Assembly (NCBI GenBank): GCA_028717685.1
Contig: JAQUNI010000001.1
Span: 1-52,305, forward strand
Length of the DNA: 52,305 nucleotides
From: Patescibacteria group bacterium
GTDB lineage: Bacteria > Patescibacteriota > JAQUNI01
Direction: 5' to 3'
The number at the start of each line of letters is the position of its first letter. Within the stretch, counting starts at the first letter, position 1. The position numbers and the translations under genes were made by a program. The notes beneath the pieces were generated by a model, which was given only the letters and a program-made list of their open reading frames with translations, did no database searches and had not been told where the DNA came from. Of the stretch, positions 8,248 to 50,923 are shown one piece after another.

Positions 8248-8727
8248 ATGGATTTCAACCAATTTTTTCGCTCAAAAATATTTAAAATTACACTCTTGAC
8301 GATCGGGCTGCTAATCATCATTCTGCTTATTTTCCAAGCAGGAATGCTTGTCGGTTTCAAAAAAGCAGGTTTTTCCTACCGCTGGGGAGAGAATTATCAT
8401 CGTAATTTTGCCGGACCTCGCGGAGGATTCTTTCAAGACTTTGCAGACAAGGATTTTATTGAAGCTCACGGTGTTTTCGGTCCAATTATTAAAATTGACG
8501 GTTCTACCCTTGTTATTAAAGGAGAAAGGGATATAGAGAAAATAATTTTATTGAAAGATGACACCGTAATTAAACATTTTCAAGACACAATCAAACCCGG
8601 CGATTTAAAAATTGACGACCATATTATCGTTATTGGCTCCCCTAATGATGCTGGTCAAATAGAAGCAAAATTAATTCGGGTTTTGCCGCCGCCATCTTCC
8701 GGGATGCCACCACCACCTGGAATGTAA
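8248..8727 (+). CDS. Membrane-anchored protein with a small beta-rich domain and a Pro-rich tail
   Basis: 159 aa. It has an N-terminal TM helix. The C-terminal pattern IIKIDGSTLVIKG...DDTVI...GDLKIDDHIIVIG...IEAKLIRV resembles the domain in ORF 12698..13162. Confidence 0.6.
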   Translation: MDFNQFFRSKIFKITLLTIGLLIIILLIFQAGMLVGFKKAGFSYRWGENYHRNFAGPRGGFFQDFADKDFIEAHGVFGPIIKIDGSTLVIKGERDIEKIILLKDDTVIKHFQDTIKPGDLKIDDHIIVIGSPNDAGQIEAKLIRVLPPPSSGMPPPPGM

Positions 8728-8758: not shown

Positions 8759-10438
8759 ATGCTGCGAAATTTTTTCAAAATGATATCGCGCCACAAAATT
8801 ATCACAACAATAGTTATTCTTGCGCTAGCAGGCGGTGGCTATTTCGGATATAAGGCATTAAAAGGAAACACAACCGAAACCCGCTATGTTTTGGCAACGG
8901 TTGAAAAAGGAACACTTGTGACATCGGTTACGGGAACTGGACAAGTGTTACCCGTTAATCAAATAGACATTAAACCCAGAGTTGCCGGCGACATAATTGA
9001 TATTAATTTGAAAAGCGGCCAAGCGGTGTCTTCCGGCGAAGTTATTGCCAAACTTGATGTGAGAGATGCTACAAAAGCCGTAAGCGATGCAAAAATAAAC
9101 CTGAATAGCGCAAAACTTGCTTTAGAAAAATTAACATCCTCATCTTTATCAACAAAACAAGATTATGTAGATGCTTATAATACTCTTGAGGGCGCGTTCC
9201 TTAATCTCACTACGAGTATTAACGGAATTGATGATATCTTGCATTATTCTTCTTATATCTGGGGTGATAATGGCAAGGCAGTGGAAGCATTCGGAGGCAC
9301 TGCCACAACATATAGAAAAGACGCGGAACAAAAATATGCCGCCGCGCGCCAAAAATATGATAAAAATTTAAAAGATTATTCAGCTTTAAACCGAGACTCC
9401 GCGATAAGCACTTTAGAATCAGTTTTGGAGGAAACATACAACACGATAGAACTCTCCACGGAAGCGATAAAAAGCACAAAAGTACTGGTGGATTATGTCA
9501 ATAATGAAACTGATCCAAATAATCGCACAACAGCAATGACAGTAGACCAAACGAGTCTTGCGACCTATACAACTAAAGCTGATTCCGATCTTACAGATCT
9601 TTTAGCGGCACAACAGGCAATTAAAGATTCGCAACAGGCAATTAAGGATTCACAAATTGATGTTCAATCGCAACAACTCGCTATTCAACTCAAAGAAAGC
9701 GCGCTTGGAAGTGTCCAAAAGGACCTCCCGAAGTATACTGTTGTCGCCCCGTTTGATGGCGTGATCACAACCGTAAATTCAAAAAAGGGAGACTCTATTA
9801 CCACGGCAACAGCAATTGCCACGCTCATTAGCAAAGAGATGATTGCAGAGGTTACCCTTAATGAAGTTGATATGGCGAAAGTTCAATTAGGTCAGAAGGC
9901 AACGCTCACCTTTGACGCGATTGAAGGTTTAAGCCTCACAGGGGAGGTGGCAGAAATTGACACACTAGGAACAGTAACCCAAGGAGTGGTGACTTACAAT
10001 GCGACAATCGCTTTTGATACGCAAGATAAAAGGATAAAACCCAATATGAGCGTTTCCGCCACGATCATCACTGAAGCAAAACAAAATGTTTTGTTGGTTC
10101 CCAATTCCGCGGTCAAATCTTCAGGCAATAATACAAATTACGTGGAAATGCTTGAACCGACGGTTATTGCGAGCCAACCTGCGGCAGGGAGTGCTGGCAT
10201 TGTCTCAAGGACGCCTCCGAGAGACCAACAAATACAAGTTGGTTTAGTGAATGACACATCCACAGAAGTCATAAGCGGACTCAAAGAAGGCGACCAAGTG
10301 ATTATTCAAACTATCAACACATCAAGTACGCAAAGTACTCAATCGCAAAGTCAAGGTGGTCTATTTCAAGTGCCAGGAGGAGCCAACAGAGGCGGTGGCG
10401 CTGGAATTAGAGGCGCTTCGCAAATCCACGACGATTAA
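8759..10438 (+). CDS. HlyD/MacA-type periplasmic adaptor (membrane fusion protein)
   Basis: 559 aa with an N-terminal TM helix, lipoyl/barrel motifs (GQVLPVNQIDIKPRVAGDI, VVAPFDGVIT) and a long coiled coil. It lies upstream of a MacB-type ABC pair. Confidence 0.85.
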   Translation: MLRNFFKMISRHKIITTIVILALAGGGYFGYKALKGNTTETRYVLATVEKGTLVTSVTGTGQVLPVNQIDIKPRVAGDIIDINLKSGQAVSSGEVIAKLDVRDATKAVSDAKINLNSAKLALEKLTSSSLSTKQDYVDAYNTLEGAFLNLTTSINGIDDILHYSSYIWGDNGKAVEAFGGTATTYRKDAEQKYAAARQKYDKNLKDYSALNRDSAISTLESVLEETYNTIELSTEAIKSTKVLVDYVNNETDPNNRTTAMTVDQTSLATYTTKADSDLTDLLAAQQAIKDSQQAIKDSQIDVQSQQLAIQLKESALGSVQKDLPKYTVVAPFDGVITTVNSKKGDSITTATAIATLISKEMIAEVTLNEVDMAKVQLGQKATLTFDAIEGLSLTGEVAEIDTLGTVTQGVVTYNATIAFDTQDKRIKPNMSVSATIITEAKQNVLLVPNSAVKSSGNNTNYVEMLEPTVIASQPAAGSAGIVSRTPPRDQQIQVGLVNDTSTEVISGLKEGDQVIIQTINTSSTQSTQSQSQGGLFQVPGGANRGGGAGIRGASQIHDD

Positions 10439-27290: not shown

Positions 27291-27384
27291 AGGTTCAAAT
27301 CTTTTTAATTTTTTTTAGTATAGCAAATTTTTGTTAAAAAATAAATAAAAAACCCACCCTAAATTTTGATTGAGTGAGGGTAGA

Positions 27385-28314
27385 TTATTTATTGTAAGCT
27401 TCTAGATGAGGCTCTAAGACCTTCTCTATCCGGTCTGTTTGATCCCAAGGAATGGGCTCTGTCAGCACCCAGGTTTCCTTGTGCGCACACATCTCGCCAG
27501 GCTTCAAGGTCACCCAAGGGCTCATTGTTTCCATTTCCACCATAAAGTTTTCTAGCCCTATATACAAAGCTACATTACAACCACGAGGATACCGTTCTTC
27601 CAGCGCAGTTTCAAACTTCGCAATTTTAAAGAAAGAACAACCGGCGTGGGGCGCGTAACAACCAATCCAACCCTGATGAACAGCAAACATTCTTTTTGCT
27701 TCTATGCCTCGCGGCTCAATGATCATAAGCTCGTCTCTCGCGTCAGGCTGGAACTGGGGATCATTCACGCGCGACGTGTGCCCAGCCCATCTCTTAAAAA
27801 TTACCATCGGCACAGTACTCCAATCACCTTTTCCTCCCAAAGGCACAGCAAAACTTTTTCCTATGGGATCAATGCAAGTTAAAGCCCAGACCCCGCCGCT
27901 CCAGAGCATATCACTGCCATTTCGAATAAAACTCTCCACATCAATCGCACCTGATCCTGCTTCCGTAATACTGAAGCCGCGTTGGATCTTGAAAACGGAA
28001 TCTTGTGCTCCCCAAAATCCCCAAGTGCGGTCCATCGCGCCAAAATAACAAGGTTTATTATCAGGCGCATACGCTTCTTCTGTTTCATCCGCACCCGGAC
28101 GATGCGTCCAAACCCGATGACCGCCATATAAAAACCACCCGCCACGGCACCGCTCTTGATTATCCCAAAAGAGAAGATTATCCTTATTCTGCAAACCAAA
28201 ATGATGAATCCGTGGACCTATGCCAATAGTCACGCCAATTTTATAACCACCATCGGTTGTAAATACTACCTCCTGCAAAGTACCATCTTTTTTAATCTCT
28301 TCAACTTTTTTCAT
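27385..28314 (-). CDS. Hypothetical protein (309 aa), possibly with a mutarotase-like beta-sandwich
   Basis: Long ORF with an AAGGAG RBS. The composition is GC-richer than the neighbours. I cannot assign a family with confidence. Confidence 0.6.
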   Translation of the reverse strand: MKKVEEIKKDGTLQEVVFTTDGGYKIGVTIGIGPRIHHFGLQNKDNLLFWDNQERCRGGWFLYGGHRVWTHRPGADETEEAYAPDNKPCYFGAMDRTWGFWGAQDSVFKIQRGFSITEAGSGAIDVESFIRNGSDMLWSGGVWALTCIDPIGKSFAVPLGGKGDWSTVPMVIFKRWAGHTSRVNDPQFQPDARDELMIIEPRGIEAKRMFAVHQGWIGCYAPHAGCSFFKIAKFETALEERYPRGCNVALYIGLENFMVEMETMSPWVTLKPGEMCAHKETWVLTEPIPWDQTDRIEKVLEPHLEAYNK

Positions 28315-28598
28315 CTTATACTCCTTCTCTAAAAAACAAACCTTAATTCTCTTAAACCTTAAGCTTCCAGAACAACAGTACCACCACCTCCTTCTCTCTA
28401 TAAAATAAAAAAACCTAACCAGAACTTAATATTTTATTATTTTAACAAAGATGTGTCAACTTATAAAAAATCTTGGCTACTTATAAAAAAGTCAAGGCAA
28501 ATAATACACGCACATTTTTTGCGCTTTCTGTTAATCCAAGGGCGCATGAAAATTATGCCCAATCCAACCAGCGAGGAACGGTTAAATAGGTTGCTTTT

Positions 28599-28630
28599 AA
28601 TAAAAAACACTGATTAATAAAATCAGTGTT
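28599..28630 (-). terminator. Intrinsic terminator after the radical SAM gene
   Basis: On the minus strand, AACACTGATT-ttatt-AATCAGTGTT is followed by TTTTATT. It overlaps the stop codon. Confidence 0.7.
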
Positions 28631-30155
28631 AAAGCAGGCTTTCCAGATACGCCTCTTTTTCGCCTAAATCTTCCGAGCTCAAAGGCTCTCCTTTGCAGCT
28701 GTCTTGGGGTCTCTCTACAAGATGTCTTTTGGACCGCGGTAAACCGTCCATAATAAACTGGTACGGCCGCCCGACTCGCCGCTTGCCCCACTCGGAAATC
28801 AGCCGGCAGTATAATATCGCCCGAAAAACATCAAATCTCAATCCTCGAGGTCCCGACAAGGCTTTGCCTAAACTGTAAATTATGGGGAAAACCTGGGCGG
28901 AAACTCTTTTTGCTTCCTCCGGCGACATATAGTAAAGTTTCCTGACGAAATGACCAGTATCATAATTATTCAGGTCCCAATCTATAATTTCCCCGTTGGC
29001 GACGGCATCGCAATAATCTTTTGTCCCCGGAAGAGCCGCCAGCCTGAATGGGGCCACGAAATCGAATGTTGCCGCCATGAGGCGCGCATCATTCAAAATA
29101 TCTTCCTCTCTCTGCCAAGGAAAACCGACAATCCAGCCAGCGTCTACTAAAATGCCGTGCGCGTGGAAGGCGTCCACAATCCGCTTATAGTCTTGCGGCT
29201 GGTTTTGTTTTTTATTGGCTTGCTTTAAAGTTGCAGGATCAAAACTCTCAATACCCAGGAAAACTTGATCCACGCCCGCTGCTGCCAAGTCGGGCACTTC
29301 TTCGGCGACATCCGGGGACGCATCAAGCTGCACAAGAATTTCCAGTTTCCTTTTGAGCTTCGCGTTCAGCCTGATCAATTTTTCTAACAAAACATGATAA
29401 TGCGGGGAACGCCGAAAGTTATCGTCCAGAAACATTATCGGCAGACCGAGCGCGTGCGTTTTTAAAACCCACTCAATAATTCCTTCCGGAGCGCGCGCGC
29501 GGCAGCGCTCCATCTTGCGGCCGCGCAGAACTGTAACCGAACAAAAAGAACAATTAAACGGACAGCCTTCCGCCGTATCCACGCCAGCTAAACGGTTTAA
29601 AGCAAAGCGGTAGCCGTCCCCGATGATATCGGGCATTGCCGGAATAGGCGCCACGCTTAAATCAACAAAAGACCTCTGCCAATATAACGGTTTTAGCGCG
29701 CCGCGCGCCGCATCCTGAATAATCTGGGTGGCGGTCACTTCACCCTCACCCACATTAAAAGAGATGCCTTCTTTTTTCAGAAGCGCGTAAACTTTCCAAT
29801 CTGCCAAAGTAACGCCAATCCCGCCGATGACAACGTCCAAACCTGCCTTTTTAAACTGCCGCGCGAGATCAATAGCCCGTGGCAATTCAAAAGTTTTGGC
29901 GCTTAATAAAATCAGCTTTCGGGCGTAATCACGATTCGCAATAATGCGTTGAATATAAGCATCACCAATCTCTGTTCTTTCATTAATACAGAAGATGTCT
30001 AACGCGATACCCGCTCCAGCCGCCGCTTGCCAAATCAAAGACTTTAACACGCCGAAAATAGGCGGGATCATCAACAGGCGGAAAAACTGAAACAAATATC
30101 CCCCATCATCGTAGGAACTAGGGGAAATTATCCAGACACCCAAATCTTTTTTCAT
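28629..30155 (-). CDS. B12-binding-domain radical SAM protein
   Basis: 508 aa. It has an N-terminal Rossmann-like cobalamin-binding-type region and the radical SAM cluster motif CPFNCSFC (CxxxCxxC) followed by TIM-barrel motifs (FLDDNF, GIESF). Confidence 0.85.
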   Translation of the reverse strand: MKKDLGVWIISPSSYDDGGYLFQFFRLLMIPPIFGVLKSLIWQAAAGAGIALDIFCINERTEIGDAYIQRIIANRDYARKLILLSAKTFELPRAIDLARQFKKAGLDVVIGGIGVTLADWKVYALLKKEGISFNVGEGEVTATQIIQDAARGALKPLYWQRSFVDLSVAPIPAMPDIIGDGYRFALNRLAGVDTAEGCPFNCSFCSVTVLRGRKMERCRARAPEGIIEWVLKTHALGLPIMFLDDNFRRSPHYHVLLEKLIRLNAKLKRKLEILVQLDASPDVAEEVPDLAAAGVDQVFLGIESFDPATLKQANKKQNQPQDYKRIVDAFHAHGILVDAGWIVGFPWQREEDILNDARLMAATFDFVAPFRLAALPGTKDYCDAVANGEIIDWDLNNYDTGHFVRKLYYMSPEEAKRVSAQVFPIIYSLGKALSGPRGLRFDVFRAILYCRLISEWGKRRVGRPYQFIMDGLPRSKRHLVERPQDSCKGEPLSSEDLGEKEAYLESLL

Positions 30156-30199
30156 TACATCACTCCTTTACCCCTTTTAAAAAAGAACAAAGTTTTCTA

Positions 30200-30228
30200 A
30201 CCCCGTTTAGAAATTTATTTCTAACGGG
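30200..30228 (+). repeat. Family-A palindromic repeat
   Basis: CCCCGTTTAGAAATTTATTTCTAACGGGG, 45 nt upstream of the radical SAM start. Confidence 0.85.
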
Positions 30229-30429
30229 GACTCGCAACATTCAGGACTATCAAAACAAAAAAACGGAATTGATAAATTTTATAAGCAAAAATCTAACCAT
30301 ACAAATGGAAGTATAAATAAAAAAAGGTCAGGTTTCAAGTCAGGCTTTTTTTAATTACTCAACTTTATTGCCTGCGATACCCTATAAATAAAAAACCTCC
30401 ATATATGAGAGGATTTCTGTTTAGACAAT

Positions 30430-36900: not shown

Positions 36901-37152
36901 TCAGGTCTGGTTTTTTATTAAATTAAGTTTCCTTTTTCGCCGCCAGCTCTTAATCTCGGCTTCTCTTTGTCTTGCCTCTTTTAGTGTTTTATATTCCTCC
37001 GAATGCTTTAAAACAACCGGCCTGCGAATTTTAGTATAATGGGCGCCATGTTTTGATTGATTATGTTCTTGCAATCTCTTTTTTAGATTATTGGTGCAAC
37101 CAACATAAAGAGAATTATCCGCGCATTCAAGGATGTAAGTATAATACAACAT
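36901..37152 (-). CDS. Small GIY-YIG nuclease-domain protein
   Basis: 83 aa. YYTYILECADNSLYVGCTNNLKKRLQEHN...EAEIKSW carries the GIY...YVG and downstream Arg/Glu motifs of stand-alone GIY-YIG proteins. Confidence 0.85.
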   Translation of the reverse strand: MLYYTYILECADNSLYVGCTNNLKKRLQEHNQSKHGAHYTKIRRPVVLKHSEEYKTLKEARQREAEIKSWRRKRKLNLIKNQT

Positions 37153-37240: not shown

Positions 37241-37387
37241 GCTGGGCATAAGGTACGACCCGCCTGCTCACAAGCCTGATGGCGAAGCCAATGGCGGGCA
37301 GGTCTTCGAACCTTTTTCATGCTGAATGAATGGGAAAATGAATTTGTGACAACAAAAAAACCTAGAGTTTCGAGAATTTTAACGTAA
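37241..37387 (+). repeat. R-repeat copy R1 (carries a 44-nt net hairpin insertion)
   Basis: It starts with GCTGGGCATAAGGTACGA, is interrupted by CCCGCC...GGCGGGCAGGT, then resumes CTTCGAACCTTTTTCATGCTGAATGAATGGGAAAATGAATTTGT. The 3' part is diverged. Confidence 0.85.
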
Positions 37388-40612: not shown

Positions 40613-40690
40613 GCTGGGCATAAGGTACGATCTTCAAACCTTTTTTATGTTGAATGAATGGGAATGCCCTGTAAAGACAGCAACTTTGAT
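40613..40690 (+). repeat. R-repeat copy R2 (internally deleted)
   Basis: GCTGGGCATAAGGTACGATCTTCAAACCTTTTTTATGTTGAATGAATGGGAA then jumps to TGCCCTGTAAAGACAGCAAC, which matches the sequence found about 10 nt after the stop of R3. Confidence 0.8.
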
Positions 40691-40771
40691 AGGTTAAAAG
40701 TTGAAGGAATTACTTTCAAAACGAAAAGGTGCTGGCAAAAATAGAATCAACCCCTATTTCCCTATTTCCTC

Positions 40772-41347
40772 CTAGTTACCATTTGCAATTTTCTTGGCTC
40801 CAGCATATTGAGGATTAATCCATTTAGGAACCTGCTTCTTCCCTGTGACTCTCGTTTTAAGTATGCTAAAAATATATTCTAATTGTTTTGTTTCTTCTGG
40901 GGTATAAGTGATTTTTTTAAATTTCCTTTCTCCATGCCCCGGAATTTGATGGGTTCTTTTTCTTGCTTCATACATAATCAGAACCGCCGCCTTCCACAAA
41001 ATGAATTCTCTGGCCTTCTTTGTTCTTAATGGATATTTTTCAAAGTGAGGAATAACTGCCTTTACCAAATCTGGAATTGAGGTTACTTGCCATTGAGCTT
41101 GACCATAAGCATGCAAGAGTTTCAATGATTTTGGATTTGATACTGCAAAGTTTCCGCAACCATTAAAATATTTTTGAATATCTTTTAGAATACTTTGATC
41201 GTCACCTCTAAGATTAATTGCAAATGCGGCTTTCCAATAAAAATAATGAAAAATTTTACTTTTCTTTTGTTGTTTATCCTTCCTAACATAAATTGTAAAG
41301 CACCCCTCTCCGTCGGTAAATCCTGTAATATAATATGGATGAATCAT
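40772..41347 (-). CDS. LAGLIDADG-family homing endonuclease (single-motif type)
   Basis: 191 aa with YITGFTDGEGCF near the N-terminus and a size typical of homodimeric LAGLIDADG enzymes. Confidence 0.85.
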   Translation of the reverse strand: MIHPYYITGFTDGEGCFTIYVRKDKQQKKSKIFHYFYWKAAFAINLRGDDQSILKDIQKYFNGCGNFAVSNPKSLKLLHAYGQAQWQVTSIPDLVKAVIPHFEKYPLRTKKAREFILWKAAVLIMYEARKRTHQIPGHGERKFKKITYTPEETKQLEYIFSILKTRVTGKKQVPKWINPQYAGAKKIANGN

Positions 41348-43106: not shown

Positions 43107-43387
43107 AGGTTTTTAGTTGATAATAAAAAAGCAAAACGCCTACCCTCAATCTCAAAAACTTGAATCGGATGATTAGTAAACATTTTGCTTGTTTTAGCTC
43201 TTTTTATGATATACCTATTCGGTTTTCTTGGTAAACGGGTTCAAATATTGTAATTTCGAACTTTTTTGATTTTTAACATTCGAACTCTTTGTCTTTGGCT
43301 TAATGCAACCGAGAATAGACCGTTTTTAGCTCGGTCATCCTAGCAAGCTGGGGAGGCAGGATCTCTCGGCAAGCTCGAGATTAAACA

Positions 43388-43684
43388 TTACCTCTCTAAC
43401 CTTTCGACAGTCTCAGGGCCTTTACTAAGTTTTTTGAGAAGATCGATATTTTGCTTAATTAACGCTAACTTCTTTGGGAAGCTCCATTTTTTAAGTTGAA
43501 TTTCTCTATTTTCAGCGTCTTGCCGTCTATTATATTTTTCATAATAAACAAGCCTTATATCAGAAAACCTCTTGGTGTAGAATGATTTTTTATTTTTATG
43601 TTGAGAGATTCTTTCTTGAAGGTCATTCGTGATACCAATATAAAAGATTTTCTGATTGCAAAGAAGAATATATGTATACCACAT
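43388..43684 (-). CDS. Small GIY-YIG nuclease-domain protein
   Basis: 98 aa. WYTYILLCNQKIFYIGITNDLQERISQHKN...ENREIQLKKW. Confidence 0.85.
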   Translation of the reverse strand: MWYTYILLCNQKIFYIGITNDLQERISQHKNKKSFYTKRFSDIRLVYYEKYNRRQDAENREIQLKKWSFPKKLALIKQNIDLLKKLSKGPETVERLER

Positions 43685-43716: not shown

Positions 43717-43819
43717 GCTGGGCATAAGGTACGATCTTCGAACTTTTTTTGTCCTTAACGAATGGAAAAATGAGTTTATAAAAGAAAAAAAGGTTAGAGT
43801 CCGGAAAGTCTATGCGTAG
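43717..43819 (+). repeat. R-repeat copy R3
   Basis: GCTGGGCATAAGGTACGATCTTCGAACTTTTTTTGTCCTTAACGAATGGAAAAATGAGTTT...GTCTATGCGTAG. Similarity to the R4 flank continues to about 43990. Confidence 0.9.
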
Positions 43820-43903
43820 GATAGATTGTGCCAGCCAAAGACAGCAACTGTCATTGTTTAAGCTTAGGTTGAATGTTATTCAATTTTTGGTTTTTATTTA
43901 TTT

Positions 43904-44206
43904 TCAAATACTTTTAACGTTTAATTCTAATTTCTTAATTCTTTTTTCATGATTTTCAAGATCATCGGAAAAACGGCGGTTCTGTGAGTATTACATGGTG
44001 TTTTCCTGGACTAAAGTTTCCAGATTTTTAGCTATTTTATCATTGCTAGTTAAAACCTGATCAAATTTTTCTGACATTTCCTCTCTAAGATCATTTTCGA
44101 GATTTTTTAAATCTTGTTTGGTCGCAAAAACCTCTTCCATGGCTGGAATTAAAACTTCCCGAATATCTTTAATGGTTAATGGTTGGTTGTCTATCGGTTT
44201 AGGCAT
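43904..44206 (-). pseudogene. Small coiled-coil ORF interrupted by an in-frame TAA (71 aa + 28 aa)
   Basis: ORF 43991..44206 ends in TAA. The same frame continues YSQNRRFSDDLENHEKRIKKLELNVKSI to 43904. The tail aligns codon by codon with the end of ORF 46862..47083, with TAA opposite CAA. Confidence 0.45.
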
Positions 44207-46648: not shown

Positions 46649-46751
46649 GCTGGGCATAAGGTACGATCTTCGAACCTTTTTCACTCTAAATACTTGGGAA
46701 AACGAGTTTGTGAAGAGAAAAAAGGTTAGGGTTAGGAAGGTTTATGCGTAA
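46649..46751 (+). repeat. R-repeat copy R4
   Basis: GCTGGGCATAAGGTACGATCTTCGAACCTTTTTCACTCTAAATACTTGGGAAAACGAGTTT...GTTTATGCGTAA. Confidence 0.9.
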
Positions 46752-46861
46752 TATAGAATATGCCAGCCAGAGACGAACAGCGCCATTATAAAAGGTTGGT
46801 GAATATTACTCAATTTTTTTCTTCATCTATTTGTCAAATAGTTTTAACTTTTAGCTCTAAT

Positions 46862-47083
46862 TTATTGATTCTTTTTTCGTTGAGCTTCAAGACGATCTAA
46901 GAAACGGCGATTTTGAGAAAATTGTATTTTCTTTTGTTGGATTAAATCATCTAGCTTTTTCAACATTTTATCTAGGACATTCATTACGAGATTGATGTTT
47001 TTTTTGATAGCAAACTTTTCCAAATTATATTTGGGAGCAAAATTCAGTGTATTCTCTTTACGTTGTTTGGTTGCATAATTCAT
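46862..47083 (-). CDS. Small basic coiled-coil protein (73 aa)
   Basis: The first 10 codons (MNYATKQRKE) are 29/30 nt identical to 44408-44437. The last ~15 codons are homologous to 43904-43990. Confidence 0.5.
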   Translation of the reverse strand: MNYATKQRKENTLNFAPKYNLEKFAIKKNINLVMNVLDKMLKKLDDLIQQKKIQFSQNRRFLDRLEAQRKKNQ

Positions 47084-47135: not shown

Positions 47136-47258
47136 TTGAAGCCGTGTGACTTGGAGAGTGGTGATGACTTGAGCGATAGTGGATTCAAGCCACGTGCTTC
47201 TAGCCATTACGGCTCGAAGCGTGATGATTCGAAGCATTACGGCTCTATGCACCATGAT
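47136..47258 (+). repeat. Tandem array T1: 8 degenerate units with 15-nt period (one 18-nt unit), consensus TCGAAGC + 8 nt
   Basis: The units are ttgaagccgtgtgac / ttggagagtggtgatgac / ttgagcgatagtgga / ttcaagccacgtgct / tctagccattacggc / tcgaagcgtgatgat / tcgaagcattacggc / tctatgcaccatgat. Confidence 0.8.
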
Positions 47259-50269: not shown

Positions 50270-50597
50270 ATGAGTATATTCACTATAACCCAAAATAATA
50301 TTTTTTACTAGCCTTTACTACCTTGAATGTCTTACTGACGAAACTATTAACATATTAAAAAGAAGAAAAATTTAAAACTACTGAACGTAGGTTGAGTAAA
50401 AAAAGTATGAGTTACCATGAGTAGTTATGAGATAAATTAATTATATTTTAACTTTTTTGTTTTTGTAGGGTAATAAAATCCTATTTCGTACTCGAATTTA
50501 CCTTCGAACCGAATATTTTAGCTAATTTAAGCTCATTTTAGGAAAACCGTACGGACTGGGGTATAAAGGGTAAAAAATCTTCGAACCATAATTTTCT

Positions 50598-50633: not shown

Positions 50634-50736
50634 GCTGGGCATAAGGTACGATCTTCGAACCTTTTTTATGCTTAATGAGTGGAAAAATGAGTTTGTAGAA
50701 GGGAAAAAGGTTAGAGTTCGGAAGGTTTATGCGTAA
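50634..50736 (+). repeat. R-repeat copy R5
   Basis: GCTGGGCATAAGGTACGATCTTCGAACCTTTTTTATGCTTAATGAGTGGAAAAATGAGTTT...GTTTATGCGTAA. Degenerate core-like fragments lie at about 50486-50510 and 50552-50587. Confidence 0.9.
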
Positions 50737-50849
50737 ATCAAAGCTTACGTGAAGTATGCCCGCCAAAGATGATAACCGTCATTATTTTATGCTTTGGTGG
50801 ATTTTATTCAATTTTTTATTTTTACGATAGTGCTCCTAACCATCAACGC

Positions 50850-50923
50850 TCGAAGCCATACGGCTTGGAGAATGGTGGCTCTAAAAATAGTGCTTCGAAG
50901 TATTACGGTTGGATATTCTCTAC
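50850..50923 (+). repeat. Tandem array T2: 5 units of 15 nt, homologous to T1
   Basis: The units are tcgaagccatacggc / ttggagaatggtggc / tctaaaaatagtgct / tcgaagtattacggt / tggatattctctact. The array is flanked by CTAACCAT at 50836 and 50927. Confidence 0.8.

Follow-up and report, generated by a model that had tools for sequence, protein, structure and literature searches.

A direct repeat with coding-type constraint and a conserved 15-nt core, possibly a cassette-joining site, in a hypervariable island of a Patescibacteria genome

The repeat described here, referred to as R, was studied at positions 43717-43819 of the window, by which we mean the whole 52,305-nt stretch of contig JAQUNI010000001.1 (positions 1 to 52,305, forward strand) from the Patescibacteria group bacterium assembly GCA_028717685.1. 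The R core is present in five direct copies on the plus strand, which start (CTGGGC...) at 37242, 40614, 43718, 46650 and 50635; the chance expectation is 0.01. The studied copy, R3 (43718-43819), carries an intact frame of 33 codons plus a stop with a tail of type A (see below), and intact 33-codon frames with a stop are also found in R4 (46650-46751) and R5 (50635-50736). In the leftmost copy, R1 (37242-37387), a 44-nt hairpin element (37259-37302) interrupts the frame, exactly between GGTACGA and TCTTCGAACC. R2 (40614-40697) is a short variant of type C that retains codons 1-17, continues into a different 10-codon end and has CGA changed to CAA; the metagenome locus L029 has the same architecture. 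Following the stop, a non-coding extension of R3 (43820-43948, plus strand) is common to R4 (46752-46878) and R5 (50737-50824), with indels present. Partial cores pile up by R5 and on both sides of a GIY-YIG gene: a degenerate partial copy lies 5' of R5 at 50546-50589 on the plus strand, a layout also found in the sister genome G001, with an additional CCTTCGAACC nearby at 50503-50512, and R-like plus-strand fragments at 43255-43375, on the far side of the GIY-YIG gene linked to R3, comprise the right half of the core and the tail start followed by a piece resembling the core left part. Two segments to the right of R4 and R5 (47136-47258 and 50850-50923) look alike by eye, and Tandem Repeats Finder was silent on them even when the minimum score was set to 30. 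DNA, six-frame and profile searches of the 1.10-Mb, five-contig genome (G000) found no R copies outside the window. Shufflon-type switching was considered and rejected: no inverted core copies were detected with up to three mismatches in the first 60 kb of contig C1 or in positions 1-40 kb of G001 contig C10, or with up to two mismatches genome-wide.

The genes neighbouring R are all on the minus strand. R keeps a single orientation, antisense to these cargo genes, among which are a HepT/MNT pair, a 765-aa TPR protein, a LAGLIDADG endonuclease, a Fib_succ_major-domain protein, two small GIY-YIG genes, a BSP-type peptidase and an SDH-type ClpP-like protease; the island is rich in toxin-antitoxin and defence genes, and the cargo at R loci elsewhere is defence-like and includes a DNA methylase and an AAA_15/AAA_21 ATPase. 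The 98-aa GIY-YIG gene (43388-43684, minus strand; PF01541, E 1.4e-16) starts 33 nt from codon 1 of R3, and the 83-aa GIY-YIG gene (36901-37152, minus strand), which has an ortholog in G001, starts 89 nt from codon 1 of R1. The LAGLIDADG gene (40772-41347, minus strand; PF00961, E 1.3e-21) ends 75 nt past the R2 stop. The original prediction had placed GIY-YIG gene starts 30-90 nt away from three copies; this holds for R1 and R3, but only a remnant lies at R4. Altogether, a homing-endonuclease gene or its remnant is found within 90 nt of four of the five window copies. Since the R copies of L037, L040 (metagenome contigs) and G003 (another genus of the same family) have no endonuclease gene alongside, we read these genes as secondary settlers. 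Elsewhere on contig C1 (locus L051, at about 360.6-361.1 kb), a small GIY-YIG gene is bracketed by 33- to 43-nt direct repeats (8624-8705 and 9044-9102 of the locus) that are 93-100% identical and overlap a tRNA-like sequence, by eye a minus-strand tRNA-Cys of which part is duplicated. This suggests that small GIY-YIG genes settle in conserved sequences and duplicate part of the target.

The 44-nt insert of R1 (CCCGCCTGC...GGCGGGCAGG) is a member of a family of small hairpin (REP-like) elements with at least three other sites in G000 (C1:151230-151260, 420826-420853 and 388147-388167), and it sits exactly at the centre of the core palindrome. No Y1 (RAYT-type) transposase, IS110 or rve enzyme was found in G000, and Pfam scans of the ORFs from 35.6 to 51.8 kb detected no recombinase. 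PF00589 has a single match in the genome, an Xer-like tyrosine recombinase located a long way from the array, at C1:468 kb. Two large serine recombinases are also present, one of which (113-1730 of the window) is 35 kb away. A link between R and these serine recombinases was dropped, as the enzymes of G000 C1, G000 C5 and G001 are only ~31% identical and C5 carries no R. At the start of the contig, positions 1-61 repeat 1484-1544 of the serine recombinase gene in inverted orientation at 98% identity, which may be a contig-end assembly artefact. We also rejected a dif/Xer site: the array lies off the GC-skew switch (near 440 kb, the apparent origin), and the right arm of the core lacks dif-like symmetry.

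R lies in a variable island. G000 and G001 are collinear at 91-93% identity up to 37256, which falls within the R1 core, and become collinear again by dnaX, from 54669 in G000 and from 32500 in G001; ~17 kb of unrelated genes lie between in each genome. The single G001 copy, which a six-frame search located at the R1-orthologous position, is most similar to R1 in its left flank (84%) and to R5 in its tail (85%), and the segment after the stop groups R3, R4 and R5, so the relationships switch within R. The switches map to the core or its immediate vicinity, in support of crossover there, and a second time close to the stop codon. In L037, R abuts the 3' part of a homologue of the window gene at 27385-28314, and the join resembles the left part of the core; in G003, ~500 nt separate R from a cold-shock gene, which has its homologue at 31.5 kb of the window. 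The left junction within this one neighbourhood thus differs between genomes. A second variable spot, at 27382-30335, holds ~3 kb in G000 (genes for 309-aa and 508-aa proteins, the latter resembling a radical-SAM enzyme by sequence) and ~200 nt in G001, and the R array of L037 begins within the homologue of the 309-aa gene. An integrative element that carries a primase-like gene and encodes a 565-aa serine recombinase forms the right end of the island in G001 (C10:25004-32590, L024); ~100 nt over the end of this recombinase gene are 91% identical to G000 C1:54669-54768, where no recombinase gene is present.

Six copies were found outside G000, in two related genomes and four metagenome contigs, which brings the total to 11, a small sample of related, non-independent sequences whose outside members were found with protein-biased queries. 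Six-frame searches gave the G001 copy and one copy in G003 at a contig end; a degenerate codon-aware DNA pattern run on 185,579 species genomes recovered G003 again, and in metagenomes it gave 17 matches, four of them true copies (L029, L032, L037 and L040). Viral contigs gave no match. All copies share (L/M)G..YDLRTFF.LNEW and end in one of three tail variants, two of them strongly basic: type A (33 codons) ends in NEF..KKVRVRKVYA, type B (40 codons) continues as NPFPKRFPMK.RR.KK..., and type C (27-28 codons) is found in R2 and L029.

The original prediction had described a nucleotide-invariant 28-nt core followed by a stretch that varies like a coding sequence. The near-invariance of the core was confirmed within the window, where the first 27-28 nt are 93-100% identical among the five copies. 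The differences among R3, R4 and R5 do fall mostly on third bases: 25 of 103 nt columns are variable, and of these 15 are third, seven first and three second codon positions (binomial test, p = 0.0056; 0.017 when corrected for three frames). These columns fall in 17 codons; 11 of the codons carry synonymous changes only (including TAG/TAA at the stop) and six change the residue, where roughly 13 of about 17 differences had been estimated to be synonymous. The peptide tail and the common stop position of R3-R5 are as described. When types A and B were combined, the third-position excess reached p = 0.0007. In the window copies R3-R5 (codons 10-33), pN/pS was 0.17 in the plus frame and 0.39 in the antisense frame that shares its wobble positions. 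The corresponding values were 0.28 and 0.46 for type A (R3, R4, R5 and L037), 0.21 and 0.39 for type B, and 0.16 and 0.41 for the 14 codons shared by all 11 copies. Because the searches for outside copies were protein-biased, stretches that the search pattern had not selected were scored separately, giving 0.29 and 0.41 for type A codons 15-33 and 0.15 and 0.23 for type B codons 15-35. In every data set the plus frame, at 0.15-0.29, was the lowest of the six; the other four frames were near or above 1 in most sets (0.62-1.97), with extremes of 0.55 and 3.1 in the two short sets from codon 15 onward.

The position of stops and indels follows the same frame. The R frame is open in nine of the 11 copies, and the two disrupted ones are the leftmost, R1 by the insertion and the G001 copy by a TGG to TGA change. 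Five of the six type A copies have their stop at codon 34, and the two type B copies long enough to include it stop at codon 41; the L026 sequence ends at a contig edge. Apart from the R1 hairpin element, the 99-nt frame of the type A copies is free of indels, which start right after the stop. Conservation begins at codon 1 in every copy, and past the stop R1 and the G001 copy are only 46-59% identical to each other and to all others, compared with 44-59% for unrelated left flanks; the conserved module is therefore roughly the frame itself. Third-position bias, low pN/pS and a conserved stop position in three copy sets, including the unselected stretches, support the coding reading. We take the substitution pattern as showing coding-type constraint, with the whole R frame under purifying selection on a peptide. 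A structure model of the peptide consists of a single low-confidence helix (pLDDT 65) and is uninformative, and the protein collections searched hold an entry for only one of the 11 copies.

Within this frame the core is constrained further. The nearly invariant stretch across genera is GTACGATCTTCGAAC, a 15-nt pseudo-palindrome of 6+3+6 nt (GTACGA-TCT-TCGAAC) within codons 4-9, located at 43729-43743 on the plus strand in R3, and it is the only stretch nearly fixed in the 11 copies. Codon 5 (Tyr) is TAC and codon 7 (Leu) is CTT in 11 of 11 copies, while codon 6 (Asp) is GAT and codon 8 (Arg) CGA in nine; by comparison, six different codons occur among the 11 copies at codon 13 (Leu) and again at codon 12 (Met/Thr/Val). 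Codons 1-4 differ outside the genus, so the stretch held at the nucleotide level across genera is GTACGA-TCT-TCGAAC. The two-layer structure proposed for R is thus real in its frozen layer, which is 28 nt within G000 but narrows to 15 nt across genera. A synonymous CGT at codon 8 would make a perfect stem, yet it is absent from all 11 copies, and it follows that the constraint is on sequence and not on hairpin stability. These codon counts show the core to be constrained beyond coding, though not toward a better hairpin, and they point to recognition by a protein. The idea that the core hairpin and the adjoining T-run form a terminator was not sustained: the terminator scan was silent, and the stem has 7 bp with an A/A mismatch and lies inside the conserved frame.

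The reading that we prefer, given below, was weighed against three other explanations. One is that R is a relic att repeat, the duplicated 3' end of a larger target gene at which serial insertions restored diverged tails, with the parent lost or present in unsequenced donors. An identity block followed by a coding-like, diverging tail is the pattern of tandem islands at gene 3' ends, the crossovers map to the core, no credible start codon is present, and a large serine recombinase element lies at the right edge of the island in G001. Against this, no gene body is attached to R in G000, G001, G003 or the four metagenome contigs. The statement in the original prediction that no conserved ORF body lies upstream was upheld, the frame being closed by in-frame stops two codons upstream in R2 and three codons upstream in L037. 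Ahead of codon 1 the copies have unrelated sequences; the exceptions are R1, G001 and R4, which have a GIY-YIG 5' region in common where the frame is not conserved, and the leftmost copy reaches no further 5' than the others. A full-length gene ending in KKVRVRKVYA, which the original prediction had proposed to look for, was not found in six-frame searches of the own genome, in 60 relatives, in the whole reference class (only four genomes) or in 400 sampled genomes of the phylum. A HMMER scan of 1.8 billion representative proteins found no parent protein, its only matches being a G003-type ORF of 69 aa and a tandem-repeat ORF; among 5.8 billion clusters, word searches found no longer or near-length protein with the tail, and Pfam, PDB and ESM Atlas searches with the R peptide were empty. 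A weak match in genome G002 lies inside an unrelated 274-aa protein and was dismissed. The other match to the peptide profile, P0002 (217 aa), contains five 27-aa tandem repeats with VRYELRGFFSMN, resembling IRYDLRTFFMLN, and is probably a translated DNA satellite. In addition, no integrase or recombinase was found at the edge of each element, the nearest being those at 113-1730 and 468 kb. These searches show no parent gene for R, and we consider a duplicated gene end with replacement tails unlikely.

A second explanation is that the antisense wobble-sharing frame, with a Phe/Leu-rich peptide ending in KKVRRSY, is the real coding frame and that the plus-frame signal is its shadow. Third-position changes barely discriminate the two frames, as most are silent in both; the antisense frame is co-oriented with all cargo genes and lies downstream of a conserved minus-strand promoter-like site, its pN/pS is 0.23-0.46, it is open across R in type B, and its peptide is hydrophobic and then basic, like small membrane toxins. 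The plus frame nevertheless shows a lower pN/pS than the antisense frame throughout the data sets. The antisense frame is closed in type A by a conserved TAA/TAG just before the conserved part, with no start codon after it, and by a stop in R2. It has no conserved end, most of the positions at which the plus frame retains LNEW are variable in it, and no parent protein was found for it either; we regard it as improbable. The last explanation takes R as a non-coding structured element (an attC-like site, hairpin terminator or insulator) with the triplet pattern as a by-product of the stem. R4 and R5 can be folded as a long imperfect hairpin in which AACCTTTTT pairs with AAAAAGGTT and GCATAA with TTATGC, and length, array layout and toxin-antitoxin-rich cargo resemble those of chromosomal integrons. 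The single-fold energies of R are ordinary, however (z -1.5 to +0.6), and the covariation term of the RNAalifold consensus is unfavourable at +1.68; shuffled alignments matched the observed paired cells in 259 of 500 cases and the covariation score in 341 of 500. L037 breaks the long-range pairs and the tail variants B and C (two of three) lack the 3' arm, with the peptide retained in all. Rfam gave no match for R at the gathering score or at E up to 1, the terminator scan omits the core hairpin, there is no integron integrase, and the best matches to the attC boxes, TTCGAAC and GTTAGAG, deviate from RYYYAAC and GTTRRRY. We regard a non-coding structured element as very improbable. The original prediction had set third-position bias against compensatory stem changes as the deciding evidence for the tail, and on those terms the coding reading of the tail holds up and its structural reading is refuted.

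Start and promoter signals of the plus frame are inconspicuous. Codon 1 is CTG in seven copies, CTC in two, ATG in one and CGG in one. The context upstream of codon 1 is G+C-rich; G000 gene starts are A/T-rich. The missing ribosome-binding site, which had been raised against a gene at R, carries no weight, because a Shine-Dalgarno-like 4-mer precedes only ~18% of the long ORFs in G000 and its absence is uninformative. No conserved plus-strand promoter was found at R, and the one promoter-like site that is conserved faces in the opposite direction. Hexamer pairs resembling promoters (such as TTGAGT-17-TATAAT) are located on the minus strand at 43854-43825, 46813-46785 and 50811-50784, equivalent places to the right of R3, R4 and R5, and are aimed through the repeat at the next cassette. 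A 14-codon minus-strand ORF starts at about the same position in R3, R4 and R5.

The reading that we prefer, at a probability of roughly 0.45, is that a lineage-specific cassette array has R at its junctions as a small coding module, whose core doubles as a joining or recognition site. R would be a self-contained module of 27-40 codons, made of a conserved N-terminal half and one of three tail variants, that sits at cassette-array junctions in a hypervariable island of a small CPR lineage, and its peptide would actually be made. Cassettes would be joined at the core, which could serve as the recognition or cleavage site of a protein, perhaps a homing endonuclease or some recombinase, or as an identity block that resolves homologous exchange after DNA uptake. 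The GIY-YIG genes and the REP-like hairpin element would then be secondary invaders landing at R. A more far-reaching form, which we put forward as speculative and on balance doubtful, is that CPR bacteria capture cassettes without an integrase, in an array whose junction element is a hitherto undescribed micro-protein gene of 27-40 codons: the 15-nt site of that gene would take cassettes, homing-endonuclease genes and hairpin elements, and the gene would be copied with each new cassette. Such an array would be a novel type of cassette system, based on a coding repeat instead of a folded att site. We found no description of such arrays in the literature searched on CPR or Saccharibacteria. How ultra-small CPR genomes, with very few recombinases, acquire and shuffle accessory and defence genes is little understood, and here two congeneric species have wholly different cargo, ~17 kb of it, in a fixed neighbourhood from the cold-shock gene to dnaX, which would be swapped at a repeat that behaves as a tiny gene. 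If the peptide is real, it is a conserved micro-protein missed by gene callers; if the core is a recognition site, it offers a handle on the enzyme that builds such islands. In both cases, R neatly illustrates that a 'repeat' and an 'ORF' can be one object.

R resembles several known systems in part. Tandem islands at gene 3' ends include the SCCmec composite islands at rlmH/orfX and islands at tRNA and tmRNA genes. Like R, they have direct repeats at every junction, accessory or defence cargo, and an invariant crossover block followed by an element-supplied copy of the gene end; in R, by contrast, all copies start at one point, codon 1, no copy has a parent gene, and no integrase or Ccr-type recombinase is located by the array. 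Chromosomal integron cassette arrays and CALINs (attC) are similar to the R array in uniform orientation, in repeats of ~100 nt at the 3' end of the cassette relative to its genes, in a cargo with much toxin-antitoxin and defence content, and in the close similarity of repeats within an array. The R array differs in that IntI, the R''/L''-L'/R' symmetry and covariation are absent, the cassettes have one to four genes and their own promoter-like sites, and the repeat evolves as coding sequence. In the minimal mobile elements of Neisseria, cassettes are swapped by transformation and homologous recombination in conserved flanks. As with R, different cassettes occupy one chromosomal site with mosaic junctions, and exchange would need no dedicated recombinase; the Neisseria flanks are ordinary full-length genes, whereas R, the flank in the present case, is a repeat of 100 nt that has a reading frame of its own.

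Free-standing homing endonuclease genes, such as the seg and mob genes of phage T4, spread by 'intronless homing'. In this case, too, GIY-YIG or LAGLIDADG genes adjoin conserved coding sequence, flanks are co-converted, and the recognised bases are fixed while wobble positions farther away drift, cleavage at R being putative. Unlike the T4 system, the GIY-YIG proteins near R have 83-98 aa and a catalytic domain only, and the copies of L037, L040 and G003 stand without an adjoining endonuclease gene. Orphan or silent coding cassettes are known from the CDI and Rhs orphan toxin modules and from pilS. They share with R a coding-like repeat with neither a start codon nor a gene in front, but R has no expressed master gene in the genome and is antisense to the neighbouring genes, and its conserved piece is a complete short frame rather than a homology handle for a variable domain.
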